Assembly (NCBI GenBank): GCA_963775695.1
Contig: CAVZJU010000003.1
Coordinates: forward strand, 141,050 to 205,049
Length of the DNA: 64,000 nucleotides
Direction: 5' to 3'
From: an uncultured Actinomycetes bacterium
GTDB taxonomy: Bacteria; Actinomycetota; Thermoleophilia; Gaiellales; Gaiellaceae
The first letter of the stretch is position 1; each line of letters starts with the position of its first letter. The position numbers and the translations under genes are program-made. The notes under the pieces are model-generated. The model was not told the DNA's origin. It ran no database searches and worked only from the letters and a program-made list of their open reading frames with translations. This document shows, one piece after another, positions 7,794 through 59,801 of the stretch.

Positions 7794-9320
7794 TCAGCGG
7801 GCCGTCCGTGCCTCTGCGGCGTTCGACTCGATTCCGAAGACCCTGCGGTAGGAGTCCTCGCCGTAGCTCGTCGGGAGCGGCTCGCCCTTGACGATACGGA
7901 ATGTCCTTCGGCCGCCGCTCCCGCGTTCGGCACGCAGGAACAGGGTGGTGTCGAGGCGCTGCGCGTGCAGGGTGTGCGCAAGGTCGTAGAGGTGGGTGAC
8001 GAAGAAGACCTTCACCCCGGAGTCGAGCATCGCGCGGATCACCTGGCGGGCGATCTCGGAGCCTTCCCGCTCGTTGGTCGCGGCGAACGACTCGTTGCAG
8101 AGCAAGAGGCAGCCCGGGGTGATCTCATCGGCGATCGCGCTCATCCTGGCGAGCTCCTCGTCGAGCTTCCCGCTCTCCATCGATTCGTCCTCCTCGCGCT
8201 TGTAATGGGTGAAGACGCCGCTGACGACGCCGGCCCGGAGGAATGCAGCGGGGGCGAACAGCCCGCACTGCATCATCAGCTGCGCGATGCCCGTGCTCCG
8301 CAGGAACGTCGACTTGCCGCCCTGGTTCGCGCCCGTGATCATCACGAGCGACCTGCCGTCCGCGTCGACGTCGTTTCCGACCACGCGTGGATCGAGGTGC
8401 AACGAGAGCGCCGCGTCGTACAGGTTCTCGGCGCTGAAAGCAGTGGCATTCCGGTCGACCGGTTCGGGGAAGCAGATCGGCTCGCCCTTCTCCGTCAGCC
8501 TCGCGTGCAGGTTCAGCGCCCCGAGGTAGAAGGCGATCTCGGCCCGCAGGACGGTGAAGAAGCTGACGATGTGGTCGGTCGACTGGCCCACGGCGTTGGC
8601 GACCAGGTTGGTGCCCTTGCCGCGCAGGTCGTCGAGCGCCTTGAAACCCGCCTCGTCCCGCGGCGGGATCGTGAAGCTGCGGCTCGGCGGCCCCTGCCCG
8701 GGGATGCGCTCGAGCCAGCCTCGCCGGCGGGGACGGCGCAGAACGTGCCCCACGCCCCTGTTGGCCCTTCCCAGACGCGCGCTCATGAGCTCTCCGCGGT
8801 CGAACTTCAGCTCCTTCAGGTAGCGGCGGAGAACGCCGAGGTACTCGTCGTCGAGCTCGGCCCGGAGCATGCCGAAGAACCGCTCGAACGCGTCGGAACG
8901 GAAGCTCGGCGCTTCCTCGTCGGCGAGCTTACGCAGGCGCTCGAGGACGTCGACGAGCGCCTGCAGCACCTGCACCGAGCTGTGCAGGATCATCCCCGGC
9001 GACGCGTGCCTGAGGCCGAAGAACAGGCTTGCCTTCCGCGGCGCGTTGACGGCCTCGACGGCCAGGTCGTAGATCGCCCTGACGGTCGCTTCGTGGGCCA
9101 GGCAGTCGGCCAGGACCTGTTGCCGGTACCGGATCTCTTCCCGCGTTCGCAGGTTCGCGAGCAGACCCTTGCCGGCGATCCCGCGCAGGAAATCGTCGCC
9201 CGCGGCCATCGCCTCGACCAGGGTCTCCAGCTCGAGGTCCTGGATCAGCGCGTCGGCGTTGGCCGGTGGCTCGCGCTCGACGTCGAAGTCGCGGTCGGCG
9301 TGCATGAGGAAGACCCTCAT
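7794..9320 (-). CDS. MutS-domain-V ATPase (MutS-related, no mismatch-binding domain), paralog B
   Basis: ATG 9320 overlaps the upstream stop (ATGA). Walker A GANQGGKST. Walker-B region LLLCNESFAATNEREG (NE instead of DE). Confidence 0.85.
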   Translation of the reverse strand: MRVFLMHADRDFDVEREPPANADALIQDLELETLVEAMAAGDDFLRGIAGKGLLANLRTREEIRYRQQVLADCLAHEATVRAIYDLAVEAVNAPRKASLFFGLRHASPGMILHSSVQVLQALVDVLERLRKLADEEAPSFRSDAFERFFGMLRAELDDEYLGVLRRYLKELKFDRGELMSARLGRANRGVGHVLRRPRRRGWLERIPGQGPPSRSFTIPPRDEAGFKALDDLRGKGTNLVANAVGQSTDHIVSFFTVLRAEIAFYLGALNLHARLTEKGEPICFPEPVDRNATAFSAENLYDAALSLHLDPRVVGNDVDADGRSLVMITGANQGGKSTFLRSTGIAQLMMQCGLFAPAAFLRAGVVSGVFTHYKREEDESMESGKLDEELARMSAIADEITPGCLLLCNESFAATNEREGSEIARQVIRAMLDSGVKVFFVTHLYDLAHTLHAQRLDTTLFLRAERGSGGRRTFRIVKGEPLPTSYGEDSYRRVFGIESNAAEARTAR

Positions 9321-10870
9321 GACGCGACCCGCTCCCGCAGCCGTTCGTACGTGAGACCGTACTTCTCGGCGATCGCCCAGGCGTAGGCGCGTCCGTCGGC
9401 CGGCCGGCGGACGAGCTTGAAGGTCCGAAGGGCGGGATTCCCCGGAACGACGGTGCTGACCATGCTGACCGTCGCATCGCTGAGCGACGCGAGCTCGTCC
9501 ACGAAGGTGACGTAGACACCGAGCAGGTCCAGGTCGAGCAATGCCCTCAGCACCTCGGTCCCGATGAAGAGCGCGTCGCTCAGCGTCGTCGACCCGAAGC
9601 TCTCGTTCATGACGACCACGCTCTCCGGGGTCGCCTGCTCGAGGATCTCGTGGACGCGGACGAGCTCGTCGTCGAGCTTGCCGCGGAGCGTCTCGATGTC
9701 CTCCTCGCGCTCGAAGTGGGTGAAGATGCGGTCGGGCAGGAAGAGCCGTGCCGCACTCCCGGGGACGGGGAGGCCGAGACTGGCCAGATGGTGGAGCTGT
9801 CCGAACATGCGGGCGAAGGTCGTCTTGCCCCCGTTGTTCGGCCCGGTGACGACGATGCACCGTTCCGTCCCCCGAAGCTCGAGGTCGTTGCAGACCACCG
9901 TTCCCCGCTCGGAGACGAGCTTGAGCGCCAGGGCGAGGTCGAAGGTCTCCGACGCGGTGGTGTCCTTCGAGCGTGCCGAGACGTGCGGGAAGCAGAATCG
10001 CAGGCCGACCCGCTCGAGCGGCTCGATCAGCTCGAGATACGCGACGTAGAACTGAATCTCGCGGTCGAAGCGGACGATCGCCGGCTCCAGGAAGTCCGCG
10101 TGGCGGCTGCAGAAGGCGTCGAGGGCGCCGAACGGGTCCGGGTTCAGCTGCGCGACCAGGGCCAGGATCTGCCCTTCGACGTGGCTCATGTGCGGCCACT
10201 CGCGCAGCTCGAGGAGGTAGCTCTTCGCGGCCCCCTGCTTGAACCGGGCAAATGTCTGCTCGACCTCCGCGCTGTAGTCCGGTTCGCCCGCATACCCGGT
10301 GACGGTGACGCGGGGCCCGTTGATCTGGACGGCGTAGACGACCTCGCCGAGAGCCTCCTCGACCGTACGCCCCTCGGTCTCGAGCGAGGCAAAGGCGTCC
10401 GAGGCCACGTAGCTCTCGAGACAGGCGGCGAGGGACCGGAGGCCGCGGGATGTGACGTCGAGCGAGGAGAGCTCGTCGGCGAGGGTGCGGACGCTTGCGC
10501 AGTAGGTGCCGGCGGCGTCCAGGAACCAGCGCTCCCTCTCGAAGTGGTACCGCCGGTCGCCCGCCTGCGCCAGGTACGTCCGTGTCGTCCGCATCCGATC
10601 GGCGAACCGGCGCACCGAGGCCATCACCTGGTCGTTGCGCAGGTCGCGGACGACCTCGTGCCGGTAGCGGACCGTCTCCACGTCCCGTTGCGCTGCCTGG
10701 AAGAACGGCTCGAGCTCGTACTCCTCGCGCCCGGCGGTCAGCCCCGCCAGCACCTGGTCGAGGTTCAGGTCGGCGAAGGAGTCCGGCTCGGCGGTCGCCT
10801 CGCCAGCTGGCCGCCCCGGAAAGAGGACTGTTCGGAACTTCCCAGCTTCCCGCCCGTTGCGATCCGCCAT
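9317..10870 (-). CDS. MutS-domain-V ATPase (MutS-related), paralog A
   Basis: 517 aa. Walker A GPNNGGKTT. Walker-B region VVVMNESFGSTT. Start codon is 25 nt downstream of riboswitch copy 2. Confidence 0.85.
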   Translation of the reverse strand: MADRNGREAGKFRTVLFPGRPAGEATAEPDSFADLNLDQVLAGLTAGREEYELEPFFQAAQRDVETVRYRHEVVRDLRNDQVMASVRRFADRMRTTRTYLAQAGDRRYHFERERWFLDAAGTYCASVRTLADELSSLDVTSRGLRSLAACLESYVASDAFASLETEGRTVEEALGEVVYAVQINGPRVTVTGYAGEPDYSAEVEQTFARFKQGAAKSYLLELREWPHMSHVEGQILALVAQLNPDPFGALDAFCSRHADFLEPAIVRFDREIQFYVAYLELIEPLERVGLRFCFPHVSARSKDTTASETFDLALALKLVSERGTVVCNDLELRGTERCIVVTGPNNGGKTTFARMFGQLHHLASLGLPVPGSAARLFLPDRIFTHFEREEDIETLRGKLDDELVRVHEILEQATPESVVVMNESFGSTTLSDALFIGTEVLRALLDLDLLGVYVTFVDELASLSDATVSMVSTVVPGNPALRTFKLVRRPADGRAYAWAIAEKYGLTYERLRERVAS

Positions 10871-11488: not shown

Positions 11489-12001
11489 TCAGCCGCCGAG
11501 ACGCGCTGCGTACCGAGCCTGTGCCTGCTCGATCTCTCGCTCCGCTGCCTCGCGACCGGCCCAGCCCTCGATCGCCGTCAACCGCTCGGGCTCGAGCTCC
11601 TTGTAGACGGAGAAGAAATGTGCGATTTCGTCGCGGACGCGCGCGGAGACGTCGTCGAGCTCGTAGACGTCCCGCCACTCGGCATCGTGCAGCGGGACGC
11701 AGAGCACCTTGTCGTCGACGCCGGATTCGTCCCGCATCTGGAAGATGCCGATCGGCCTGACGTCGATTCTGCAGCCGGGGAACGTCGGCTCGCTGACCAG
11801 CACGAGCGCGTCGAGCTGCGCATCCATCTCGCGCTGACGCTGGCCGTGGTCGACCAGCGTGTCCTCCAGGAAGCCGTAGTCGGCCGGGAACACGACCGAC
11901 GAGAACAGGTGCCGATCGAGCCTGAAGACGCCCCTGCCCACATCCCACTCGTACTTGTTCTGGCTCCCCTTCGGCACTTCGACGAAGCAGACGAGCTCCA
12001 C
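11489..12001 (-). CDS. ppa: inorganic pyrophosphatase, family I (atypical metal-site region)
   Basis: VEVPKGSQNKYEWD, FPADYGFLEDTL, IRPIGIFQMRDESGVDDKVLCVP, IAHFFSVYKELE. An insertion and substitutions occur at the DxDxxD segment (see findings). Confidence 0.9.
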   Translation of the reverse strand: MELVCFVEVPKGSQNKYEWDVGRGVFRLDRHLFSSVVFPADYGFLEDTLVDHGQRQREMDAQLDALVLVSEPTFPGCRIDVRPIGIFQMRDESGVDDKVLCVPLHDAEWRDVYELDDVSARVRDEIAHFFSVYKELEPERLTAIEGWAGREAAEREIEQAQARYAARLGG

Positions 12002-12032: not shown

Positions 12033-12470
12033 TCAATCCGCCGGCTCCTCCGATACGACCAGAACGGGTACCTCCGCCGAGGCGATCAGGCGCTCGGCCA
12101 CGCCGTGGAGGAGGAAGCGTCCGGGGCGGCGGCTGCGGTGATGGCCGACGATCACCAGGTCGAACCCGTGCTCACGCGCATAGTCGAGCAGGTCCTCCAC
12201 CGGATGGTCGCCTTCGATGATCTCCTGGCGGACGTCGACCCCGGCACGGTCGGCGCGGTCGAGGAAGTGGTCGAAGGTCTCCCTCAGGTACCTGGTCGCC
12301 GCATCGACCGATTCGGCGCGGTCGGCCTCGGTCTCCGCGTGGGCGGGGGAATGCGCGACGGACGCGGCGACGATGTCCGCCTGGTAGCGGCGGGCCAGAT
12401 CCAGCGCGAGGTCGAATGCACGCGCCGCGGGGCGTGAGCCGTCCCAGGCGATGAGGATTTCCTGGAACAT
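12033..12470 (-). CDS. universal stress protein (UspA family)
   Basis: ATG 12470 overlaps the upstream stop by 1 nt (TGATG). MFQEILIAWDGSRPAARAFDLALDLARRY...DLVIVGHHRSRRPGRFLLHGVAERLIASAEVPVLVV. Confidence 0.85.
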   Translation of the reverse strand: MFQEILIAWDGSRPAARAFDLALDLARRYQADIVAASVAHSPAHAETEADRAESVDAATRYLRETFDHFLDRADRAGVDVRQEIIEGDHPVEDLLDYAREHGFDLVIVGHHRSRRPGRFLLHGVAERLIASAEVPVLVVSEEPAD

Positions 12471-14440
12471 CAGTGACGGAGGGCTGGGATCATGGCGAGT
12501 GCTCCTAGCAGGACGAGAAGGACATACAGCAGGTAGAAGCCGAGCCGGCCCGACTGCAACCGGCGGGTGAAGCCGGAGAGCCGAAGGCCGGCGGCGACGA
12601 GCGGCTCGTACAGGTAGTGCTCGAAGGCCGGCACCACGCGCGTGGTGAGCATGAAGCGCTCCGGCTGCCTCCCGCCCCCCTCGGCGTGGATCGTCCTGCG
12701 AAATCCGTAGACACCGGCCAGGACGACGCGGATCGGATTGGTGTAGGCCTCTGGCGTGTATTGGACGACCGCGATGTCGGGTGCGGCGCCGGAGAGCCAC
12801 ACCGGCGCACGACGCACCGACGGCTTCAGGAGCACGCGGACGAGAAGGGCGGCCGCGATCAGGAACGTCGGGATCGCCAGCGCCAGCCACGTCGGCGAGA
12901 GGACCGAGAAGTTTCCGTAGACGGGGCCGAGGACCAGCGGGTGGGTGACGGCCGTGCCGGCCGGGTCGAAGCCGAGGACGCCGCTCAGCCCTTCGCCGAG
13001 CCAGCGGATCTCCCACGGCGCGGCCGCCCCGAGGAACAGCAGGGTGACGCCGAACGCGACGAAGCCGATGCCTCCCCGGCGGGCCTCGGGGGCCGGCTCC
13101 TGCGGGTGACGTGGACGCCCGAGGAAAATTCCACCGAAGAGGCGGGCGAAGGCGAGCAGCGCGATGCCGGCGGTGAGCGCGACCATCGCGCCACCGAGCG
13201 CCATGAACAGCTGCGCGTCCGAGTCCTTCAGACGAAACCCTTGCAGGAGCGCCTCCAGGGTGAACCACTCGCTGACGAATCCGCCGAATGGAGGCATCGC
13301 CGCAAGTGTGAGGACCGCGAGTCCGAAGCCCAGAGCCGTCCCCGGAAGCTTTGCCGCGAGGCCTCCGAGCGGCGCGGTCGTCCGCTCCCCGGTGGCCTCG
13401 GCGACGCTTTCCGCGCCCAGGAACGCCCCCGCCTTCGCGATTCCGTGCATGATCACGTGCAGGGTCGCGGCGAGGAGTCCCGCCGCCGCCAGCTCCGGCT
13501 CGTTGCTGCCCTGCCCGATGAGGGCGACTCCGAAGCCGAGGAGCGCGATGCCCCCGTGCTCGACGCTCGAGAAGCCGAGGAACCGCTTCACGTCGTCCTG
13601 CACCACCGCGTAGAGGATCCCGGCGATGGCACCCAGACCGCCCAGCACGATCAGCAGCTCTCCCCACCAGAGCGGCGCAGGTGCGAGCGTGCCGTAGACG
13701 AGGCGCCAGAGCCCGTAGAAGCCGCCGTTGAAGGCGACGGCGATCGTCGCCGCCGTCGCAGCGGGAGCAGCCTGGTACAGACCCGGGAGCGGCACCTGGA
13801 AGGGAAGCAACCCGATCTTGGTGCCGAAGCCGACGAGCAGGAGGACGAACGCGACGTCGCGGGTCGTGCCGAGGCCGGCCGCGGCGTGCTGCCAGGCGCT
13901 GAACTCGAAGCTTCCGGTCTGCCCGTAGAGCAGCCCGAAGGCGGCGAGGATCGCAGCACCGCCGATCTTGTTCACCGCCGAGGCGAAGTAGCCGGCCGCG
14001 AGCGCAGCCGGACGGTCGCGATCCAGGCTGCCGAGGATGTAGAGGCAGACGCTGAGGGTCTCCCAGGCGAGGAGGAAGACGAACCCCTGATTGGCGCCGA
14101 GGACGGCGGCGAGCGCAAGGATGACGAGGCTGTGGAGGGTCGCGGGCGACCGGCGAGTCGGACGCTCGGCGAGAGCGACGGACACTGCAGCGGCCGTCCC
14201 GCCGACCAGCGCGAGGAAGATGCCGCTGAGCCGGTCGGCGACGAGCGCGGAGGGGCCGAATCCGAGCCACGTCCCGAGACCCACGCGAGCTTCCGACCAC
14301 CCCCCCGCGCTGACGACTCCGACTGCGCAGAGGAGCGCGGATGCGACGGCCGCCGCACCCAGGGCCGGGCGAGGCCGGAGCAGGGCGAGTCCGGCTGCCC
14401 CGCAGAGCACGAGGAGGGCTGCTGCGAAGACGCCGTTCAC
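12470..14440 (-). CDS. HyfB/HycC-like (NuoL-like) antiporter-type membrane subunit
   Basis: 656-aa polytopic protein with proton-antiporter-like blocks (GFGTKIGLLPFQVPLPGLY, FLGFSSVEHGG). Confidence 0.85.
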   Translation of the reverse strand: MNGVFAAALLVLCGAAGLALLRPRPALGAAAVASALLCAVGVVSAGGWSEARVGLGTWLGFGPSALVADRLSGIFLALVGGTAAAVSVALAERPTRRSPATLHSLVILALAAVLGANQGFVFLLAWETLSVCLYILGSLDRDRPAALAAGYFASAVNKIGGAAILAAFGLLYGQTGSFEFSAWQHAAAGLGTTRDVAFVLLLVGFGTKIGLLPFQVPLPGLYQAAPAATAATIAVAFNGGFYGLWRLVYGTLAPAPLWWGELLIVLGGLGAIAGILYAVVQDDVKRFLGFSSVEHGGIALLGFGVALIGQGSNEPELAAAGLLAATLHVIMHGIAKAGAFLGAESVAEATGERTTAPLGGLAAKLPGTALGFGLAVLTLAAMPPFGGFVSEWFTLEALLQGFRLKDSDAQLFMALGGAMVALTAGIALLAFARLFGGIFLGRPRHPQEPAPEARRGGIGFVAFGVTLLFLGAAAPWEIRWLGEGLSGVLGFDPAGTAVTHPLVLGPVYGNFSVLSPTWLALAIPTFLIAAALLVRVLLKPSVRRAPVWLSGAAPDIAVVQYTPEAYTNPIRVVLAGVYGFRRTIHAEGGGRQPERFMLTTRVVPAFEHYLYEPLVAAGLRLSGFTRRLQSGRLGFYLLYVLLVLLGALAMIPALRH

Positions 14441-15207
14441 GCTGCTGCCTCCCGGGTGACGACGCCGGACGCCAGAAGCAGTCCGTGCAGGACCGCGATC
14501 GGGCTCGGCGGAGATCCCGGGACGTAGACGTCGACCGGGAGGACCCTGTCGACGCCGCCGGCCACTTCACCTGTCTGGGCTGCGAGACCGCCGGAGCAGG
14601 CGTCGGTACCGGCGGCGACGACCGCCTTGGGGTGCGGCATGACCTCGAATGCGCGAAGGAGGGGTGCCTCCATCGAGGGGGTGACTCCACCGGTGACGAG
14701 GAGGATGTCGGCGTGCCTCGGAGACAGCGTGAAGAAGAGGCCGAGGCGCTGCATGTCGTAGAAGGGGTTCGTCAGCGCGGCGATCTCCCACTCCTCGGCT
14801 CCGTCCGAGCCGGCGTCGACGTGCCTGACGTGGATCGAGCGGCGGAGCGTGCGCGACTGCTGTCCGAGGCTGCGACGCGGCTCGCCGGTCGCGCCTTCGG
14901 GATCGTTCACGACGAGCGCGCCGCGCCGGCGTGCTGCCGTCTCGTACTCGGGCTCGAATTCGAAGCGGCTCGGATCGGCGGCGACGCAGGCGCCGCAGAG
15001 GATGCAGCGGCCGCGGTCGACGGAGACGCGGCCGCCGCTGCTCCTGATCGCTCCGGTCGGGCAGACCGCTTCCAGACCTGCCGGCGCCGGCGTGTCGCTC
15101 CTGAGACCGACCCGGCCGCGAAAGCCGGGAGGGGCCGCCTCAGGACGCCGCGGGTATCGGGTCGTGACGATGCCGCGATGCAGGCCGCGGGGGATCCACT
15201 CCAGCAT
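14437..15207 (-). CDS. fusion of a HycF-like ferredoxin remnant and a HycG/NuoB-like small subunit; most FeS cysteines missing
   Basis: N-terminal part retains VCPTG...CILCGACVAADP. C-terminal part is NuoB-like (LSPRHADILLVTGGVT...PKAVVAAGTDACSGG...LPVDVYVPGSPPSP). It has GSDGAEEWE and PGSPP where the canonical motifs are GSCxxCE and PGCPP. Confidence 0.75.
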   Translation of the reverse strand: MLEWIPRGLHRGIVTTRYPRRPEAAPPGFRGRVGLRSDTPAPAGLEAVCPTGAIRSSGGRVSVDRGRCILCGACVAADPSRFEFEPEYETAARRRGALVVNDPEGATGEPRRSLGQQSRTLRRSIHVRHVDAGSDGAEEWEIAALTNPFYDMQRLGLFFTLSPRHADILLVTGGVTPSMEAPLLRAFEVMPHPKAVVAAGTDACSGGLAAQTGEVAGGVDRVLPVDVYVPGSPPSPIAVLHGLLLASGVVTREAAA

Positions 15208-16700
15208 CAGCGATCCGCTCCTGCCGGCGAGAGCCCGAAGCTGTGCTCGATGAACGAGAAGTCGGTGAGCACGTCGCCGCGGAAGCTGGCTGCGAAGAGC
15301 GGCCAGTTACGAAGCGACGGCGAGGAGATCCGCACCGTTCGCAGCCGACCCTCGTCCACCTCGACCCAGTAGACGAGCTCGCCCATCGGCGCCTCGGCCC
15401 AGCCGAACGCCGCTCCACTCTCGGCGGGAAGCTCGACCGTCAGCTCGCCGTCGTCCTTCTCGTCGCGCTCGAGCGACTGCCGGATCAGGTGGACACTCAC
15501 GCGGATCTCGTCGAGGCGGACCTCGAGACGGGCCATCGCGTCACACTCCTCGGCCGTGACCATCCGGAAGCCCAACCTCCGGTACGCGCCGTAGGGGCGC
15601 TCGAAGCGCGCATCGGTCGGGATCCCCGATCCGCGCGCGACGGGCCCGACGCCCGCATGGGCGTCGACCGTGGCGGGTTCGAGTGTGCCGCTTCCGATCA
15701 GACGGTCGGTGAACGAGGGTGTCCTCAGCAGGAGCCGTCGATCCCGGCGCACGTCGCGCTCGAGCTCGCTGAGAAACCGTCGTATCTCGCGGATCGGAAG
15801 CTGGGGCCCTCCGGCGACACCGCCGGTGACGATGACGCCTCGTCCGAAGCGACTGCCGCAGAGCCGCGCCCGCAGACGCATGACCTGCTCCTTGAGGATC
15901 CCGAATCGGGCGACCGCCACGGACAGGGCGGCGTCCTCTGCGAGCCGGGTGGCAACGTCGAGATGGTTCGCGATCCGCTCGAGCTCCGCGTGTACGACCC
16001 GCCAAAGCTGCGCCTTCGGCGGCGGTTCGACGCCGAGCGCACGCTCGACCGCGTGCGAGAAGGCGCACGCATGCGCGACCGACGCAATGCCGGCTACGCG
16101 CTCGGCGACCGTCGTCCCGTCCCCGGGGGTGCGACCGTTGAAGCGGCTCTCGAGCCCCCGCCGCTTGAAATACGGCCGGACCTCCAGTGCCAGGACGTCT
16201 TCGCCGCCCGTCTCGATCACGTACTGGATCGACTCGAAGACTCCGGAACGGATCGGCCCGTAGGGGATGACGAACGTCCCCTCGCCCTCCACCCGGCGGC
16301 GAAGGTTGTCCGGATCGGGGCGGACGGCCGGGGCCAGGTCCGGATGCCCGAGAGGAATGAGACCGTGGAGGTCGTGCAACTCCCGCTCCGGGAAGCGAAA
16401 TGCCGGTGACATCAGTGCAAGTGACGGAAACGACGACGTCCGGTCGATCGACGCCAGGAGGGCGACCAGCTGTCCGCGCACCGCGAAGGCGACGGCGAGG
16501 GACCGCTCCGGCTCGTCCGTGACGAACATCGCGACGAGCCGGGCGCGACGTTCGAGCAGGAGCGCCGCCGCCCGGTCGATCACTCCGATCGGCAGTCGTA
16601 GGCGCTGCTCGCCGAGCGGAGCCGGTTCGCCGACTGCGCGAAAGCGACCGTCGAGGAACTCGTGTGCGTCGCCTGCGAGCATTGCGTTCTCGGCGGTCAT
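15207..16700 (-). CDS. HycE/HyfG-like (NuoC-NuoD fusion type) 'large subunit' lacking both NiFe CxxC motifs
   Basis: ATG 16700 overlaps the upstream stop (ATGA). AERVAGIASVAHACAF replaces R-x-C-G-x-C-x-x-x-H. The C-terminus ...SFIEHSFGLSPAGADR replaces D-P-C-x-x-C-x-x-R. Only 3 isolated Cys in 497 aa. Confidence 0.85.
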   Translation of the reverse strand: MTAENAMLAGDAHEFLDGRFRAVGEPAPLGEQRLRLPIGVIDRAAALLLERRARLVAMFVTDEPERSLAVAFAVRGQLVALLASIDRTSSFPSLALMSPAFRFPERELHDLHGLIPLGHPDLAPAVRPDPDNLRRRVEGEGTFVIPYGPIRSGVFESIQYVIETGGEDVLALEVRPYFKRRGLESRFNGRTPGDGTTVAERVAGIASVAHACAFSHAVERALGVEPPPKAQLWRVVHAELERIANHLDVATRLAEDAALSVAVARFGILKEQVMRLRARLCGSRFGRGVIVTGGVAGGPQLPIREIRRFLSELERDVRRDRRLLLRTPSFTDRLIGSGTLEPATVDAHAGVGPVARGSGIPTDARFERPYGAYRRLGFRMVTAEECDAMARLEVRLDEIRVSVHLIRQSLERDEKDDGELTVELPAESGAAFGWAEAPMGELVYWVEVDEGRLRTVRISSPSLRNWPLFAASFRGDVLTDFSFIEHSFGLSPAGADR

Positions 16701-20034: not shown

Positions 20035-20080
20035 CGCGATGAGGCCCGCGCTCAACCGCCTTCGGGCTGATGGCTTCTGT
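20035..20080 (+). promoter_or_regulatory. fluoride riboswitch (crcB motif), copy 5
   Basis: CGCGATGAGGCCCGCGCTCAACCGCCTTCGGGCTGATGGCTTCTGT. Divergent from copy 4. Followed by GGGAGG and ATG 20115. Confidence 0.8.
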
Positions 20081-20114
20081 GTCTTCTTCGGGTTCGCTCC
20101 AGGGAGGCGGACGT

Positions 20115-20540
20115 ATGAGTCATCTCGCGCCGGATTCAGCCGGAAGTGCCCAGGTCGAGATCGACGTCGACCCGGCTGGGCTCGACGAGCTTCGCGGCCG
20201 GGCAGGCGACGCAGCACCGACCGCGGACGAGGACCTGCTCCGATACCTCGTGTACCTGGGCGCCGGCTACCTGGAGACCGAGGCAGTCTCTGCGGCTGCC
20301 CCGAGCGTCCACGAGGCCTATGCGCGCCTCGACCGCATGCATGCTGCCGTGGAGGGGCACTCGTCGGTCCTGAGTTTCCACTACGGCGAGTCGGCGCGAG
20401 AGTTCGCCGAAGAGGAGAGGGCACACGCGGCTCACGAGCGAAGCGCCGGAGCCTACGAGGGGCTTGTCGAGAAGCTCGAGGCGGAGATCGCAGCCCGGGA
20501 AAAGCGAGTCGTCAGGCTGAAACGAGCGCTCGAGCAATGA
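20115..20540 (+). CDS. hypothetical protein (acidic, C-terminal coiled-coil-like), first gene after riboswitch 5
   Basis: ATG 20115 is preceded by GGGAGGCGG. Product MSHLAPDSAGSAQVEIDVDPAGLDELRG...LVEKLEAEIAAREKRVVRLKRALEQ. High GC3. No family recognised. Confidence 0.6.
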   Translation: MSHLAPDSAGSAQVEIDVDPAGLDELRGRAGDAAPTADEDLLRYLVYLGAGYLETEAVSAAAPSVHEAYARLDRMHAAVEGHSSVLSFHYGESAREFAEEERAHAAHERSAGAYEGLVEKLEAEIAAREKRVVRLKRALEQ

Positions 20541-22499: not shown

Positions 22500-23549
22500 T
22501 GTAGTTCCTGAACACGTTGGTTCATCCGGGCCTCCTTGGAGGCTGAGGGCTGCCAGGCACTCAGACTCAAGGAGGCATCCGGATGAGGCTTCACGGTAAC
22601 GCGGCTCTCAGTTGGAGCGGTCGGCGGCGGCTGGCCGAGCGCGTTGTTGTTCAGGGCTGGACGGTGAGTGCTGCCGCTGAGGCTGCCGGTGTCAGTGTCG
22701 GTTGCGCTCGCAAGTGGGTGAGCCGCTACCGGCTCGAGGGTGAGACGGGCTTGTGCGACCGTTCCTCGGCCCCTCGCCGAGTCTGGAATCGGACAGCGCC
22801 GGAGCGTGTTGAGGCGGTGATCGCGCTTCGGCGGCTGCGGATGACCGCAGCGGAGATCGCCGAGCTGCTTGGGATGGCGCTCTCGACCGTGTCAGGGATC
22901 CTGGCTCGGTGCGGAATCGGTCGTCTCGGTCGGATCGGGCTCGAAGCAGCTCGCCGATATGAGTACTCGCGGCCCGGTGAGCTCGTGCACATCGACGTGA
23001 AGAGACTCGGTCGAATCGAGGGTGCTGCTGGCAAGCGCATCAGCGGACGGCCCCACTCGCAGTACATGCCGAGGCGCACCGATGCCGCCGGCAGCCGGCG
23101 GAACACGGTCGGCTGGGAGTACGTCCACATCGCCGTCGACGACTACAGTCGCCTTGCCTACGCCGAGGTCCTCAACGACGAGAAAGCCGCTACCGCAGCC
23201 GGCTTCCTGCGTCGCGCTCTCCGCTACTACCGCCGCCACGGAATCCAAGTCGAGCGGATCCTGACCGACAACGGCTCCTGCTACCGCGCCGCGATCCACG
23301 CAGTCGCTTGCAGGGCCCTCGGCATCCGCCACAGCCGAACCCGCCCCTACCGGCCACAAACAAACGGCAAGGCCGAGCGCTTCATCCGCACTCTCCTCCA
23401 CGGGTGGGCCTACGGCGCGATCTACCGCTCAAGCCAAGAACGAACCGCGGCACTTGACGGCTGGCTCAGGCACTACAACCATCGCAGACGACACTCAGCC
23501 CTCGGCCACCAACCCCCGGTCAGCAGAACCAACCTGCTCGGGTCCTACA
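22500..23549 (+). mobile_element. IS481-family insertion sequence, apparently intact, with 6-bp target-site duplication ACTAGG
   Basis: IRL TGTAGTTCCTGAACACGTTGGTT (22500-22522) versus the reverse complement of 23527-23549, TGTAGGACCCGAGCAGGTTGGTT (18/23 identical). Flanks are ACTAGG at 22494-22499 and 23550-23555. Confidence 0.85.
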
Positions 23550-23554
23550 ACTAG
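22583..23554 (+). CDS. IS481-family transposase (DDE, rve domain)
   Basis: 323 aa: HTH N-terminus, HIDVKRLG, WEYVHIAVDDYSRLAY, TDNGSCY, RPYRPQTNGKAERF. The ORF reads through IRR and stops at the TAG within the duplicated CTAG. Confidence 0.9.
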   Translation: MRLHGNAALSWSGRRRLAERVVVQGWTVSAAAEAAGVSVGCARKWVSRYRLEGETGLCDRSSAPRRVWNRTAPERVEAVIALRRLRMTAAEIAELLGMALSTVSGILARCGIGRLGRIGLEAARRYEYSRPGELVHIDVKRLGRIEGAAGKRISGRPHSQYMPRRTDAAGSRRNTVGWEYVHIAVDDYSRLAYAEVLNDEKAATAAGFLRRALRYYRRHGIQVERILTDNGSCYRAAIHAVACRALGIRHSRTRPYRPQTNGKAERFIRTLLHGWAYGAIYRSSQERTAALDGWLRHYNHRRRHSALGHQPPVSRTNLLGSYN

Positions 23555-38839: not shown

Positions 38840-40786
38840 TTGAGCGACGCGGCGATCGAGACCCTGCTTGCGGAAGAACGCCGTTACCCGCCGCCCGACG
38901 ACTTCGCGGCCCAGGCGAACGCCCAGCCAGATCTCCACGAGCTCTCGTTCGAGGAGCTGTGGGAACGGGAGGGGCGCGAGCGCGTCACCTGGTTCGAACC
39001 GTTCACCGAGCTCTACGAATGGGAGCTGCCCTACGCGAAGTGGTACCTAGGCGGGAAGCTGAACGCGTGCTTCAACTGCGTCGACCGCCACGTCGACGCG
39101 GGGCGCGGCTCGAAGGTCGCGTACTACTGGGAGGGCGAGCCTGACGACGACCGGCGGATCGTCACGTTCGACGATCTCCTGCGCGAGACCACGCGACTGG
39201 CCAACGCGCTGCGGGAGCTGGGCGTCGTCAAGGGAACGCCGGTGGCGATCTACATGGGCATGATCCCGGAGCTACCGATCGCGATGCTCGCCTGCGCGCG
39301 GATCGGCGCCCCGCATACGGTCGTCTTCGGCGGCTTCTCGGCCGAGTCGCTCTCGGCCCGGATGAACGACATGGAGTGCGAGGTGCTGATCACGCAGGAC
39401 GAGGCCTGGCGGCGTGGCACGACCGTGCCGCTGAAGGCGATCGCCGACGAGGCCCTCGCCGAGGTGCCCGGCGCTCGGTCGTGTGTGGTGCTGCGTCGGA
39501 CGGGCGGCGATGTCCCGATGGACGAGGACCGCGACGTCTGGTGGCACGAGGTCGCGGTCTCCGACGAGGCCTGCCCGTGCGAGCCGATGGACTCGGAGGA
39601 CCTGCTGTTCCTGATGTACACGAGCGGGACGACCGCGAAGCCCAAGGGAATCGCGCACACGACCGCCGGCTACCTGGTCGGCAGCGTCTCGACGCACCAC
39701 TACGTCCACGACGTGAAGCCCGACGCCGACGTCTACTGGTGCGCGGCCGACGTCGGCTGGATCACCGGCCACTCGTACATCGTCTACGGGCCGCTGGCGA
39801 ACGGGACGACTGGGGTGCTGTATGAGGGCACGCCCGACTTCCCGGACAAGGACCGGTGGTGGGCGATCGTCGAGCGGTATGGCGTGACGATCCTCTACAC
39901 GGCGCCGACCGCGATCCGCGCGCACATGAAGTGGGGAACGGAGTACGCCGGGCGGCACGACCTCTCGTCGCTGCGGCTGCTCGGCTCGGTCGGCGAGCCG
40001 ATCAACCCCGAGGCCTGGATCTGGTACCGGCGGCACATCGGCGGCGACCGGACGCCGGTCGTCGACACGTGGTGGCAGACGGAGACGGGGATGGCGATGA
40101 TCACGCCGCTGCCGGGCGTGACGACCCTGAAGCCGGGATCGGCGACCAAGCCCTTCCCCGGGATCGACGCCGCCGTGGTCGACGAGTCGGGCCGCGAGGT
40201 CGAACCCGGCGGCGGCGGTTACCTGGTTCTGCGCAAGCCGTGGCCGGCAATGCTGCGCGGCATCTACAAGGATCCCGACCGGTACGCGGAGACGTACTGG
40301 TCGCGCTTCCCGGGCATGTACTTCGCGGGGGACGGCGCGCGGCGCGACCGCGACGGCGACTTCTGGCTCCTCGGGCGCGTGGACGACGTGATGAACGTGT
40401 CAGGGCACCGGATCTCGACGATCGAGGTCGAGTCGGCGCTGGTCGACCACCAGGCGGTGGCCGAAGCGGCCGTGTGCGGCCGGAACGACGCACTGACCGG
40501 GCAGGCGATCGTCGCGTACGTGACCCTGAAGGGTAGCCAGGAGGGGTCGGTGGAGATGATGGACGAGCTCCGCGACCACGTGGCCCATGTGATCGGGCCG
40601 ATTGCGAAGCCGGCCAACGTCGTGTTCACGCCTGAGCTGCCGAAGACACGCTCAGGGAAGATCATGCGCAGGCTGCTGCGGGACGTCGCCGAGAATCGGC
40701 CGCTGGGCGACACGACGACGCTGGCCGACCCGGCGGTCGTTTCGGAGATCAAGGCGCGGGCCGAGGCCGAGCCCGCCGAGGAGTGA
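38840..40786 (+). CDS. acs: acetyl-CoA synthetase (AMP-forming)
   Basis: 648 aa. FWEREGRERVTWFEPF, YTSGTTAKPKGI, WWQTETG, TLPKTRSGKIMRR. Confidence 0.95.
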   Translation: MSDAAIETLLAEERRYPPPDDFAAQANAQPDLHELSFEELWEREGRERVTWFEPFTELYEWELPYAKWYLGGKLNACFNCVDRHVDAGRGSKVAYYWEGEPDDDRRIVTFDDLLRETTRLANALRELGVVKGTPVAIYMGMIPELPIAMLACARIGAPHTVVFGGFSAESLSARMNDMECEVLITQDEAWRRGTTVPLKAIADEALAEVPGARSCVVLRRTGGDVPMDEDRDVWWHEVAVSDEACPCEPMDSEDLLFLMYTSGTTAKPKGIAHTTAGYLVGSVSTHHYVHDVKPDADVYWCAADVGWITGHSYIVYGPLANGTTGVLYEGTPDFPDKDRWWAIVERYGVTILYTAPTAIRAHMKWGTEYAGRHDLSSLRLLGSVGEPINPEAWIWYRRHIGGDRTPVVDTWWQTETGMAMITPLPGVTTLKPGSATKPFPGIDAAVVDESGREVEPGGGGYLVLRKPWPAMLRGIYKDPDRYAETYWSRFPGMYFAGDGARRDRDGDFWLLGRVDDVMNVSGHRISTIEVESALVDHQAVAEAAVCGRNDALTGQAIVAYVTLKGSQEGSVEMMDELRDHVAHVIGPIAKPANVVFTPELPKTRSGKIMRRLLRDVAENRPLGDTTTLADPAVVSEIKARAEAEPAEE

Positions 40787-52523: not shown

Positions 52524-54398
52524 CTAAAACCCTGGACCGAGCGCCGTCGAGATCGCCTCGAGCGCCTCGGGGTTCTCGACCGACGAGAGATCGCCGGGAT
52601 CGTCCCCGAGCGCGGTCGCCCGCACCGCCCGCCGCACGATCTTGGCCGAGCGCGTCTTCGGCAGCGCGGGCACGAAGACGACGCGGTCGGGTGCGAACGC
52701 CTTGCCCAGGTCGGCGGAGATCAGGTCGGCCACCTCCTCGGCCGAGGCCGACCTGTTCGGTGCGAGCACGCAGAAGACCCACGCCACCTCGCCCTTGATC
52801 TCGTGCGGGACTCCGACGGCGGCCGCCTCGATCACGGCCGGATGCGCGACCGCGGCCGACTCGATCTCGGCCGGCCCGATCCGCTTGCCGGCGATGTTCA
52901 GCGTGTCGTCCGAGCGGCCGTGCAGGAACCAGTAGCCGTCCGCGTCGACGGAGGCCCAGTCTCCGTGGGTCCAGATCCCCGGAAAGCGGCGCCAGTACGT
53001 ATCGAGGTAGCGCTCCGGGTCGCCCCAGAACCCCCGTGTCATCCCCGGGAAGGGCTTGCGGCACACGAGTTCGCCCACCTCGCCCGTCCCGACGAGGGAC
53101 TTCCCGTCTGGATCGACCACGTCCATCGCCATGCCGAGAGCGGGGCCGCCGACGGAGCACGCCTCGATCGGCTCGGCGATGGACGAGCCCAGGAACACCG
53201 CGCCGACCTCGGTGCCGCCGGTGATGTTGACGATGGGGACGCGCGACCCTCCGATGCGCTCGAACAGCCAGTGGTACGGGCCGGGATTCCACGGCTCGCC
53301 CGTGGTCACGAACACGCGCAGCGACGACAGGTCCGCCTCCGGCTCGCCGTGCGGGATCAGCGCACGCACCAGCGTCGGCGAGCACCCGAGGATCGTCACG
53401 CGCTCCTCCTCCACCAGGCGCCACAGCCGGTCGGACGGCCAGTCGGGCGCCCCTTCCGCGAACACGAGGGTCGCGCCCATGGCGCCACAGCCGACCACGG
53501 TCCAGGGACCCATGATCCAGCCCATGTCGGTGGAGAAGTGGACGACGTCGTCGGGTCGCGCGTCCGCCAGGTAGCAGGCCTCGCGCGCGATCGAGATCAG
53601 GAAGCCACCCTGGACGTGGAGCACGCCCTTGGGTTTCCCGGTCGTCCCGGACGTGTACGTGAGGAGGTACGGATGCTCAGCTTCGACCGGGAGCGGCTCG
53701 AGCGTGCCGGGGCAGCCGGCGACCTCCTCGTCCCACGGCGCGACGATCACGTGCTCGAGCGCCGGCGAGTGCCGACGTGCCTCCTCGAGGATCTCGAGCA
53801 TCGGCACGGACCTGCCGCGCCGCAACGACGTCCGGGCGGTGATCGCCGCGCGCGCCCCGGAGTCGACCAGGCGCTGCGCGACCGCCGGCGCCGCGAAGCC
53901 CGAGAAGACCGGCACCTGGACCGCTCCGACGTGCGCGCAGGCGTGCGAGGCGATCGCCGCCTCGGGCGACATCGGCAGGTAGGTCGCGACGCGGTCCCCC
54001 GGCCGGACGCCGAGCTCGACCAGCCGCTCCGCGAGCCGCGTGATCGAGTCCGAGAGCTCGGCGAAGGTCAGCTCGCGCCGCGCCCCGTCCTCGCCGCGGA
54101 AGACGGCCGCTACCCGGTCACTCCGCCAGCGGTGGACGCAGTTCCAGGCGATGTTCAGCTTCGCGCCCTCGAACCAGGTCGCCCACTCGGGGCCGCGCGA
54201 CAGGTCGACGACCTCGGACCAGGGTTCGTACAGCTCGATCCCGGTGTCCTCCACTGCCGCCGGCCAGAACCATTCCGGATCCTCGATCGAGCGGGCGACG
54301 AGCTCGCGGTAGGAGGAGAAGCCGTGCCTGCGCATCAGCCGGACGACGTTCGCGCGCTCGAGCACGTCCTCGGAGGGCGTCCAGACCACCTCTGCCAC
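52524..54398 (-). CDS. AMP-forming acyl-CoA synthetase (acetyl-/acetoacetyl-CoA synthetase-like)
   Basis: 624 aa. EDPEWFWP, TYTSGTTGKPKGV, TGGTE, PKTRSAKIVRR. Confidence 0.9.
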   Translation of the reverse strand: MAEVVWTPSEDVLERANVVRLMRRHGFSSYRELVARSIEDPEWFWPAAVEDTGIELYEPWSEVVDLSRGPEWATWFEGAKLNIAWNCVHRWRSDRVAAVFRGEDGARRELTFAELSDSITRLAERLVELGVRPGDRVATYLPMSPEAAIASHACAHVGAVQVPVFSGFAAPAVAQRLVDSGARAAITARTSLRRGRSVPMLEILEEARRHSPALEHVIVAPWDEEVAGCPGTLEPLPVEAEHPYLLTYTSGTTGKPKGVLHVQGGFLISIAREACYLADARPDDVVHFSTDMGWIMGPWTVVGCGAMGATLVFAEGAPDWPSDRLWRLVEEERVTILGCSPTLVRALIPHGEPEADLSSLRVFVTTGEPWNPGPYHWLFERIGGSRVPIVNITGGTEVGAVFLGSSIAEPIEACSVGGPALGMAMDVVDPDGKSLVGTGEVGELVCRKPFPGMTRGFWGDPERYLDTYWRRFPGIWTHGDWASVDADGYWFLHGRSDDTLNIAGKRIGPAEIESAAVAHPAVIEAAAVGVPHEIKGEVAWVFCVLAPNRSASAEEVADLISADLGKAFAPDRVVFVPALPKTRSAKIVRRAVRATALGDDPGDLSSVENPEALEAISTALGPGF

Positions 54399-58677: not shown

Positions 58678-58956
58678 GTGAAGGGGAGGAGGCACACGCC
58701 GGAGCAGGTGGTGCGGAAGCTTCGGGAGGCTGATCGGCTGCTCGCTGAGGGGAGCGATCTGCAGGATGTTTGCCGGCAGCTGGAGGTGTCGGTGCAGACG
58801 TATCAGCGGTGGCGGTCGCAGTACAAGGCGATGCGGCCAGAGGACGTGGTGCGGTTGAAGCAGCTGGAGAAGGAGAATGCGCGTTTGAAGCGGCTGCTGG
58901 CGGAGAGGGAACTCGATCTCGACATGCTGCGGGAGGTGGCTCGGGGAAACTGGTGA
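58678..58956 (+). CDS. IS3-family transposase OrfA (HTH)
   Basis: GAAGGAGG RBS then GTG 58678. VKGRRHTPEQVVRKLREADRLLAEG...VSVQTYQRWRSQY...LKQLEKENARLKRLLAE (leucine zipper). Confidence 0.85.
   Translation: MKGRRHTPEQVVRKLREADRLLAEGSDLQDVCRQLEVSVQTYQRWRSQYKAMRPEDVVRLKQLEKENARLKRLLAERELDLDMLREVARGNW
58944..58950 (+). promoter_or_regulatory. candidate -1 programmed frameshift heptamer G_GGA_AAC
   Basis: An X_XXY_YYZ heptamer correctly phased in the orfA frame, 4 nt before the orfA stop. A -1 slip enters the orfB frame (GGG AAA CTG GTG AGC ...). Confidence 0.55.
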
Positions 58957-59801
58957 GCCCGGAGCGGCGGCGCAGGGCGGTCGTGCACCTGCAAAGCCGT
59001 TTCCGGGTATCGGAGCGGAGGGCCTGTCGGGCGGCGAGGCAGCATCGCTCCTCACAGCGCTACGGGCGGAGGTGCCTCGCCGATGAGGCAGTGTTGCGGG
59101 AGCGTCTGCGGCTGCTGGCCAGGCGTCATCCCCGCTACGGCTACCGGCGGATGCACGCGCTGCTACGACGGGAAGGCTGGGCGTGTAACCGCAAGCGGGT
59201 GCAGCGGCTCTGGCGGGACGAGGGCTTGCGCCTGCCGCCCAAGGTGCGTCGGCGCAGACGCAAACGGCGGATGCCCGGCCACGTGACCGCGGCCTGCCCC
59301 GATCAGGTCTGGGCGCTCGACTTCCTCGTCGACCGCACCGCCGATGGTCGGCCAATCAAGATCCTGGCGATCACCGACGAGCACACCCGCGAAGCACTGG
59401 CCATCCCAGCGGCTCGTCGCATCACCTCGGACGACACTGTCGAGGCGCTCGAACGAGTCGTCGAACGGCGGGGCAGCGCCCCCTCCTACATCCGCTGCGA
59501 CAACGGCCCCGAGCTGACCGCCGAGGCGCTGAAGGACTGGTGCCGCTTCAGCGGAATCGCCGTCTCCTACATCGAGCCCGGGGCTCCCTGGCAGAACCCG
59601 TACGTCGAGTCGTTCAACGGGCACCTCCGCAACGAGCTCCTCGACATGGAGTCCTTCAACACCCTGCTCGAGGCCCAGCTCCTCCTCGAAGACTGGCGGC
59701 AGGAGTACAACCACCACCGGCCTCACCAATCACTCAACTACGAAACCCCGGCAGCATTCGCCCGCCAATGGCATGCTGACCACGACCACAGACCCTCATA
59801 A
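58953..59801 (+). CDS. IS3-family transposase OrfB (integrase core, DDE)
   Basis: HPRYGYRRMHALLRREGW, VWALDFLVDRT, RCDNGPELTA, PGAPWQNPYVESFNGHLRNELL, YNHHRPHQSL. Probably expressed as an OrfAB fusion. Confidence 0.85.
   Translation: MSPERRRRAVVHLQSRFRVSERRACRAARQHRSSQRYGRRCLADEAVLRERLRLLARRHPRYGYRRMHALLRREGWACNRKRVQRLWRDEGLRLPPKVRRRRRKRRMPGHVTAACPDQVWALDFLVDRTADGRPIKILAITDEHTREALAIPAARRITSDDTVEALERVVERRGSAPSYIRCDNGPELTAEALKDWCRFSGIAVSYIEPGAPWQNPYVESFNGHLRNELLDMESFNTLLEAQLLLEDWRQEYNHHRPHQSLNYETPAAFARQWHADHDHRPS

Follow-up and report, generated by a model that had tools for sequence, protein, structure and literature searches.

Complexes of the energy-converting-hydrogenase-related (Ehr) kind have been described since 2005 and 2013 (Coppi 2005; Marreiros et al. 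2013, both as cited in later texts), and in those later texts their function is repeatedly called unknown. Their subunit composition, including the fusions of NuoI with NuoB and of NuoC with NuoD, has been reported for Firmicutes, hyperthermophiles and Margulisbacteria (supplement, PMC6349859), and in the literature they are expected to link charge translocation to a redox reaction in the cytoplasm, with electrons passing through the small and the large subunit. Geobacter cells growing on formate contain abundant Ehr subunits, albeit those of a different Ehr. Here we describe a stretch of 64,000 nucleotides (the window) from contig CAVZJU010000003.1 of an uncultured member of the Gaiellaceae, in which a gene on the minus strand encodes a fusion of a NuoI/HycF-like ferredoxin to a NuoB/HycG-like small subunit. 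Judged by its sequence, the surrounding operon is an Ehr complex of known kind in a Gaiellaceae-like Thermoleophilia host, with conserved ligands for a single [4Fe-4S] cluster in its whole soluble arm and with conserved acidic residues at two of the four positions where the Cys ligands of the proximal cluster would be expected.

The locus among Ehr complexes, hydrogenases, complex I and antiporters

The assignment to Ehr follows from the combination of a Cys-less large subunit with a set of NuoB-, NuoCD-, NuoH-, HyfE-, HyfB- and HyfF-like genes. The large subunit is homologous to NuoD and to that of the group 4 [NiFe] hydrogenases and is devoid of the Cys residues of both the N-terminal RxCGxCxxxH and the C-terminal DPCxxCxxH/R motif, and it is encoded together with NuoB-, NuoC/D-, NuoH-, HyfE- and antiporter-like (HyfB, HyfF) genes that include the NuoI-NuoB and the NuoC-NuoD fusion. 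This placement was made by gene content and the Cys-less large subunit, with four other loci that share such a subunit (L013, L014, L017 and L021) as the comparison instead of reference Ehr or HydDB sequences. In its large-subunit Cys loss, gene set and fusions the locus is like Ehr as described; however, the descriptions define only the large subunit as Cys-less, whereas here the small-subunit cluster and one ferredoxin cluster are gone as well. The NuoB cluster that is lost here is kept in other Ehr loci, namely in a Nocardia locus (L014) and in L021. The later Ehr texts drawn on here make no mention of cluster loss from the small subunit or of conserved carboxylates at that site, a statement that does not extend to the founding papers (Coppi 2005; Marreiros et al. 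2013).

The overall architecture is that of E. coli formate hydrogenlyase (FHL, i.e. Hyc; PDB entry 7Z0S) and of Hyf (FHL-2, group 4a). Five subunits were searched, and four of them have their best PDB match in Hyc (HycG, chain 7z0s_G, which matched the fusion with a phmmer E-value of 7.5e-31; HycE, 1.5e-45; HycD, 3.9e-40; HycC, 2.1e-39); among the NCBIfam models the best matches are to HyfB, HyfE and HyfF. In FHL, a [NiFe] site is joined by a single cluster in HycG and by two clusters and a Cys4 metal site in HycF, and the input module is made up of HycB and FdhF. The present complex, by contrast, is devoid of the [NiFe] site and of the HycG cluster and has only one HycF-type cluster and no counterpart of the C-terminal Cys quartet of HycF, and no hycB, fdhF or hyp genes are found near the locus. 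None of the four [NiFe] Cys and none of the four proximal [4Fe-4S] Cys that mark the group 4 [NiFe] hydrogenases is in place. The archaeal members of this lineage offer a further comparison, as the HyfF-like subunit has its best PDB match in a subunit of P. furiosus MBS (6u8y_H, 4.7e-35). MBS/MBX (6U8Y) and MBH (6CFW) are likewise derived from group 4, and MBS is likewise without a [NiFe] site; MBS and MBH are nevertheless reported to keep all three [4Fe-4S] clusters and a full Mrp module, whereas one cluster is left here.

With the Q-module of complex I (Nuo/Nqo) the locus shares the NuoB fold and the charged residues of the NuoH-like and antiporter-like subunits. It differs in that the ligands of cluster N2, the equivalents of Nqo4 His38, Tyr87 and His169, and half of the NuoI Cys are missing, and in that the operon is without NuoEFG, NuoA, NuoJ and NuoK genes. 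In the case of the Mrp Na+/H+ antiporters, the characteristic Glu of transmembrane helix (TM) 5, Lys of TM7, Lys (or His) of TM8 and Glu or Lys of TM12 are found in both the HyfF-like and the HyfB-like subunit, and MrpA and MrpD are among the PDB matches of these subunits. MrpB, MrpC, MrpE, MrpF and MrpG, on the other hand, are absent from the operon, which has NuoH-, NuoCD- and NuoI-NuoB-like genes instead, and Mrp and DAB themselves are without a peripheral arm of NuoH-, NuoB-, NuoCD- and NuoI-like subunits. The likeness to Mrp, DAB and the CO2-uptake module of cyanobacterial NDH-1, all of which move ions without an internal electron relay, would thus be one of mechanism, by analogy, and not of membership.

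Metal-site ligands of the soluble arm

The fusion gene runs from an ATG at 15207 to a stop codon at 14437 and encodes 256 residues. The sequence-only reading had taken the product for HycF/NuoI joined to HycG/NuoB, and domain searches, PDB alignments and structure comparison all agree with it. Pfam places Oxidored_q6 (NuoB, PF01058) at residues 139-244 (E-value 1.5e-21) and several single-cluster Fer4 models at residues 47-91, whereas the NCBIfam models for NuoI (TIGR01971, residues 13-101), HycF (PRK12387, residues 1-98) and HyfH run collinearly from the N-terminus, with matches that are weak and below the curated cut-offs. The fold, as predicted by AlphaFold2 on an alignment of 63 sequences, is confident (pLDDT 90.9, pTM 0.89). 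Foldseek matched the C-terminal domain of the model to HycG, MbhJ and mitochondrial PSST, with TM-scores of about 0.75-0.88 for PSST and MbhJ; MbhJ is the best structural match (root-mean-square deviation 1.8 Å over 133 columns).

All motifs that had been quoted for the protein (VCPTG, CILCGACVAADP, GSDGAEEWE, GTDACSGG and PGSPP) are present in its translation, and the whole chain holds five Cys, at positions 49, 68, 71, 74 and 204. NuoI, HycF and HyfH carry two CxxCxxCxxxCP motifs, i.e. eight Cys; of these the fusion retains just the CP Cys of motif 1 and the CxxCxxC of motif 2, whereas the CxxCxxC of motif 1 and the CP Cys of motif 2 (now D78) are gone. In clostridial-type ferredoxins with two [4Fe-4S] clusters the CP Cys of the first motif joins the CxxCxxC of the second motif on one cluster. 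C49 and C68/C71/C74 are thus the complementary set for a single cluster, which means that the ferredoxin domain would keep one complete cluster and have lost the other one entirely; the earlier estimate of at most one cluster can accordingly be sharpened to exactly one.

The register of the NuoB ligands was derived from residue-level phmmer alignments to HycG (7z0s_G), P. furiosus MbhJ (6cfw_J) and mitochondrial PSST. The reference proteins read VDCGGCNGCEIE (CNGCE; HycG) and SGSCNGCDIE (MbhJ) around Cys 1 and Cys 2, G-x-C-x around Cys 3 and PGCPP around Cys 4, and the four Cys align with D135, E138, D202 and S232, so that none of the four canonical positions is kept. The same holds for the N2 ligands of complex I (a tandem Cys-Cys followed by two single Cys): the alignment to PSST/Nqo6 begins after the CC motif, and its third and fourth ligands correspond to D202 and S232. 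The loss of the proximal-cluster ligands from the NuoB part, as first read from the letters, is therefore borne out by all three references, yet the count of about one remaining Cys in four is not, as C204 lies two residues downstream of Cys position 3 and is I, V or L in relatives; the correct number is zero. Taken together, the alignments to NuoB/HycG and HycF/NuoI that had been proposed as a check gave proximal Cys that are replaced and NuoI Cys of which half are gone. The possibility that ligands are displaced and not lost was considered and rejected in view of the total of five Cys and the lack of conservation of the off-register C204: with four of the five in the ferredoxin site, displaced ligands can not rebuild a second cluster.

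To describe the variation at these positions we used two sets of homologs, namely the 120 closest ones (69-100% identity; set 1) and 120 members of a second deep clade, with 30-35% identity to the fusion and including Alistipes and other Rikenellaceae (set 2). C49, C68, C71 and C74 are present in all 240 sequences, and position 78, the former Cys, drifts (D in 59, A in 36, E in 19 and H in three members of set 1; A, Y, S, C or F in set 2). Such a pattern argues that the retained Cys are exactly one cluster under strong selection and no random remnant. Within the NuoB part, D135 is likewise invariant in both sets (120/120 each), and position 202 is D throughout set 1 and D (86) or E (34) in set 2. 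Position 138 is E in 119 members of set 1 (D in the other one) and T, C or V in set 2, which gives E/D/V/I/T/C across the clades; position 204 is always C in set 1 and I, C, V or L in set 2; and position 232 is S in 118 and A in two members of set 1 and N, A, T or D in set 2. E139, W140 and E141 are invariant in set 1. Replacements that are universal therefore occur at just two positions, with Asp at Cys position 1 and Asp or Glu at Cys position 3, and the ligand replacements are, on this evidence, non-random: acidic residues occupy these positions throughout two deep clades.

The large subunit, with its true start at an ATG at 16700, has Pfam matches to Complex1_30kDa, NiFeSe_Hases and Complex1_49kDa. 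The earlier statement that it has no [NiFe] Cys holds: its L1 motif reads RVAGIASVAH where HycE has RVCGICGFAH, its L2 motif reads SFGLSPAGADR, and the four [NiFe] Cys positions are occupied by A and A in the N-terminal and by S and G in the C-terminal part. The residues that serve the quinone in complex I are also replaced, in that Phe and Gly stand where Nqo4 has its ligands His38 and Tyr87, and Gly stands where it has the redox-Bohr residue His169 (T. thermophilus numbering). A GSRFGRG sequence resembles the GQRFHH of complex I. Glu164 (alignment numbering) is kept and aligns with the Glu of the beta1-beta2 loop of HycE and MbhL, presumably the proton-transfer Glu of the [NiFe] hydrogenases. 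The Cys-less L1 and L2 motifs recur in ten related Thermoleophilia loci; in two more (L010 and L011) the frame is disrupted. Of the three Cys in the large subunit none is conserved and there is no conserved Cys column, so that the soluble arm as a whole has four conserved Cys, enough for one [4Fe-4S] cluster. That the electron-transfer wire of the complex is broken, as the sequence-only reading had it, would be a consequence of this ligand loss.

The distribution of ligands among relatives suggests how this state arose. Among 150 representatives at 50% identity, 73 are canonical at all four NuoB Cys and most of the others are of the Asp type. Fused proteins occur in three states, i.e. with two ferredoxin clusters and the NuoB cluster, with the same single ferredoxin cluster as here and the NuoB cluster, and with the single ferredoxin cluster alone. 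A two-cluster form (P0139, in L021) already adjoins a Cys-less large subunit, and the Nocardia locus L014, whose gene order we take to resemble that of the M. tuberculosis hyc locus, combines a Cys-less large subunit with an unfused small subunit that has the canonical cluster. The likely order of loss, as far as these sequences tell, is the [NiFe] site, then the distal ferredoxin cluster, and then the proximal cluster.

The relatives are numerous. A word-indexed protein search scored 2907 of them, and 6669 for the second clade, and an exhaustive search of representatives returned 5381 clusters at E<=1e-3. The closest named sources of homologs of the fusion are metagenome-assembled genomes (MAGs) of Gaiellaceae and Solirubrobacteraceae. 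The same class of fusion (GGDNS...DAIS...PGNP) is carried by human-gut Alistipes (L017-L020, contigs of Alistipes/Rikenellaceae, and L013), where it belongs to a six-gene operon of HyfB, NuoH, HyfE, HyfF, NuoCD and the fusion. One cluster of the Alistipes type comprises 213 member sequences, one of which is found on 252 contigs.

The operon, its membrane arm and its neighbours

Six genes on the minus strand make up the operon, in the order HyfC+HyfE, HyfF, NuoCD-like, NuoI-NuoB fusion, HyfB and universal stress protein (USP). All six are intact and tightly coupled, with the successive junctions TGAGATG, ATGA, TGATG, GTGA and TGATG (coordinates are given in Table 1). The gene order, including USP, is kept in 11 of 12 loci from MAGs of Thermoleophilia and Acidimicrobiia, at identities from 89% down to about 50%; in L008 the operon genes are present in a rearranged order, and L010 has no detectable USP gene. 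The ratio of nonsynonymous to synonymous substitution rates (dN/dS) of the fusion lies between 0.17 and 0.32 against eight orthologs, which indicates that the fusion gene is functional and under purifying selection, and purifying selection was shown for the operon as a whole. Two loci deviate in the large subunit, the frame of which is broken or scrambled in an Acidimicrobiaceae MAG (L010) and in a Solirubrobacteraceae MAG (L011), with a fusion gene that is intact or partly intact; these broken frames could be real decay or errors of long-read assembly (indels).

Table 1. Position of the operon genes and of the ligand and motif sites within the window.
Feature	Position	Strand	Evidence
Universal stress protein gene	12033..12470	minus	PF00582, E-value 4e-28; TGATG coupling to the HyfB-like gene
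HyfB-like (NuoL-like) antiporter-like subunit, 656 aa by open reading frame (homologs align from about residue 48)	12470..14440	minus	domains, alignment
NuoI/HycF-like :: NuoB/HycG-like small subunit gene	14437..15207	minus	open reading frame, domains, PDB, fold, dN/dS
NuoB/HycG-like domain, residues 121-250, without cluster ligands	14458..14847	minus	PF01058, HycG, Foldseek
S232 in PGSPP, proximal-cluster Cys 4 (PGCPP) to Ser	14512..14514	minus	PDB alignment
D202-A-C204, proximal-cluster Cys 3 to Asp; C204 off register by two residues	14596..14604	minus	PDB alignment
D135-G-A-E138-E139-W-E141, proximal-cluster Cys 1 and Cys 2 to Asp and Glu	14785..14805	minus	HycG and MbhJ alignment
NuoI/HycF-like ferredoxin domain (N-terminal), residues 1-100, with amphipathic helix and TxxYP motif	14908..15207	minus	NCBIfam, Fer4
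D78, in place of the fourth motif-2 Cys, which would bind the second ferredoxin cluster (now lost)	14974..14976	minus	variable in homologs
C49 (CP, motif 1) with C68, C71 and C74 (CxxCxxC, motif 2), putatively one complete [4Fe-4S] site	14986..15063	minus	codon coordinates, conservation
NuoC-NuoD/HycE-like large subunit, 497 aa, no metal-site Cys	15207..16700	minus	Pfam; HycE, MbhL and Nqo4 alignment
Degenerate L2 motif SFGLSPAGADR (canonical DPCxxCxxR/H)	15210..15242	minus	C-terminal end of the translation
Degenerate L1 motif RVAGIASVAH (canonical RxCGxCxxxH), without equivalent of Nqo4 Tyr87	16071..16100	minus	alignment
HyfF-like antiporter-like subunit, 487 aa	16697..18160	minus	domains; Glu of TM5 and TM12 and Lys of TM7 and TM8 intact
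Fused HyfC/HycD (NuoH-like) and HyfE-like membrane subunit, 542 aa	18162..19790	minus	PF00146; HyfE PRK11492 at residues 333-542; HycD alignment

The Glu of TM5, the Lys of TM7, the Lys of TM8 and the Glu of TM12 are invariant in the HyfF-like and HyfB-like subunits of 15 loci, down to about 30% identity, and the motifs in the TM1-2 and TM5-6 loops of the NuoH-like subunit are conserved in the compared loci. Going by these residues, no canonical charged residue of the ion-translocation path is missing from the membrane arm. The NuoH-like and HyfE-like subunits are fused in the Thermoleophilia loci; Alistipes (L017) and Nocardia (L014) have one gene for each. The USP gene adjoins the HyfB-like gene in 11 of the 12 related loci, an arrangement which suggests that it belongs to the operon as a sixth member with a regulatory role.

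As for potential partners, none of the open reading frames (ORFs) scanned in the 64-kb window encodes formate dehydrogenase, NuoEF, carbon monoxide dehydrogenase, FdhF or HycB or corresponds to a hyp gene, and within the same window the scan likewise yielded no Hyp maturation gene or maturation endopeptidase. Genes of all these kinds are also absent from the Alistipes loci, for which all called genes were checked. The Thermoleophilia loci were searched only for the window's own genes, and partner genes may therefore be present there.

Several other genes of the window were noted. Directly downstream of the operon lies an ORF (11489-12001, minus strand) that by appearance encodes a soluble inorganic pyrophosphatase; it is the same neighbour in L001 and is close by in L002, L003 and L008, and an H+-pyrophosphatase gene is found near the Alistipes operon. 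Divergent from the operon promoter region is an ORF for 156 residues (20070-20540, plus strand) that has no Pfam match and is 76% identical in L001. Further away there are two adjacent MutS-family ATPase-like paralogs (9317-10870 and about 7794-9330, both on the minus strand; Walker A sequences GPNNGGKTTF and GANQGGKSTF as read from the translations), a transposase that is IS481-family DDE-like by translation only (22583-23554, plus strand), an IS3-like transposase with HTH_21 and rve domains (58770-59801, plus strand), and two acetyl-CoA-synthetase-like paralogs (38840-40786, plus strand, and 52524-54398, minus strand; ACAS_N, AMP-binding and AMP-binding_C).

A proposed translocator with one cluster: possible modes of action

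The explanation that we tentatively favour, at a little less than an even chance, is that the operon encodes a one-cluster Ehr that acts as a cation or proton translocator, most likely a redox-independent (or redox-gated) one. The canonical path of electrons from a donor via a relay of FeS clusters to an active site presumably can not operate in such a complex, and if so, translocation would most likely be independent of redox chemistry and the complex would resemble an Mrp antiporter bearing a peripheral arm. That arm might then serve as a structural, or a gating and regulatory, cap over the E-channel of the NuoH-like subunit, with the single remaining cluster in a structural role or as a sensor of redox state or O2, and the co-transcribed USP might have a regulatory function; it is common for USP domains to be attached to cation transporters. 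A number of points weigh against this explanation. The function is deduced solely from what is missing and what is kept, and one [4Fe-4S] site is absolutely conserved, which is no less compatible with a redox role than with a structural one. A metal could be bound by the conserved Asp and Asp/Glu of the former cluster site, so that a redox centre would be rebuilt, and genes for electron donors may sit elsewhere in the genome; formate dehydrogenase partners have been proposed in the literature for other Ehr complexes. Finally, the surviving ferredoxin cluster would be, to judge from the two-cluster relatives, the one adjacent to NuoB; a search of the literature for the assignment of the NuoI ligands to clusters N6a and N6b returned none.

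An alternative that we consider possible, if less likely, is that the complex is still an ion pump driven by redox reactions, but with a new chemistry. The [4Fe-4S] cluster would be fed by ferredoxin or by a detachable dehydrogenase, and its electrons would go either to a substrate or to a mononuclear metal, newly bound by the conserved carboxylates D135, D202 and E139 at the interface of NuoB, NuoD and NuoH. This alternative would account for the four cluster ligands being found in 240 of 240 sequences, for the acidic residues that are universal in two deep clades (Asp at the first Cys position, Asp or Glu at the third) and for the retention of Glu164 in the large subunit, it agrees with the coupling of a cytoplasmic redox reaction to charge translocation that the literature expects of Ehr, and it has a parallel in P. 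furiosus MBS, which is reported to reduce polysulfide at the proximal cluster without a [NiFe] site. However, of the five positions that could supply ligands, just two are conserved across the clades (138, 232 and 204 vary), and neither the Alistipes loci nor the 64-kb window showed a gene for a partner oxidoreductase within the operon or next to it. Distance is a further obstacle: the complex I cluster next to N2 is more than 20 Å from the substrate pocket, and without a bridging centre electron transfer over such a distance would be too slow. The absolute conservation of the cluster and the Asp pair nevertheless keeps this alternative alive.

It would be a very improbable variant of intact electron transfer that the proximal cluster is still present on non-Cys ligands (Asp135, Glu138, Asp202 and Ser232, and/or Cys204), with the wire unbroken. 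The NuoB fold and its pocket appear preserved in the predicted model, and P. furiosus ferredoxin, DPOR and IspG are examples of proteins whose [4Fe-4S] cluster has one Asp or Glu among its ligands, yet we know of no [4Fe-4S] cluster with zero or one Cys ligand; moreover, four of the five Cys of the fusion are used by the ferredoxin site, most relatives have Ile, Val or Leu in place of C204, and there is variation at positions 138 and 232. Hardly credible, in our view, is a functionless and decaying relic of a formate hydrogenlyase-2 (Hyf-type) hydrogenase, even though three of the four metal centres are lost and the large-subunit frames of L010 and L011 are disrupted (by decay or by long-read assembly error). 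The low dN/dS, the six intact genes that overlap and are translationally coupled, the synteny held from 89% to 50% identity, the thousands of homologs in soil Thermoleophilia and gut Alistipes and the invariance of the replacement residues all speak against it; pseudogene formation as such was rejected on dN/dS, synteny, the coupled junctions and the confidence of the fold.

The acidic residues at the old cluster site admit a specific and rather speculative proposal, to which we give only a small chance. N2, or the proximal cluster, might have been replaced by a titratable pair of carboxylates, the protonation or cation binding of which would act as the electrostatic trigger in place of the reduction of cluster or quinone. 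The complex would then be related to complex I but gated by pH or ions instead of redox chemistry, with the remaining [4Fe-4S] cluster as a sensor of redox state or O2, and its occurrence in soil Thermoleophilia and human-gut Alistipes would be wide.

The Ehr family and the NuoI-NuoB fusion were already known; no description was found, in the later Ehr texts drawn on here, of the one-cluster state or of the conserved acidic residues at positions 1 and 3 of the proximal Cys, both of which also occur in human-gut Alistipes. Ehr complexes are common, being found in Geobacter, Nitrospira, Sulfobacillus and candidate phyla and, as seen here, in soil Thermoleophilia and gut Alistipes, and they include a large subclass that has the ligands for one [4Fe-4S] cluster in its whole soluble arm and an ion-translocating membrane arm that is fully kept. 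A soluble arm with a single cluster would rule out the canonical relay for this subclass, contrary to the published models of electron flow, and the census of cofactors thereby constrains the function of Ehr, with Alistipes as a culturable host. If it is true that ions are moved without redox chemistry, these complexes would be a natural experiment on the communication between the peripheral arm and the membrane arm in machines of the complex I type.

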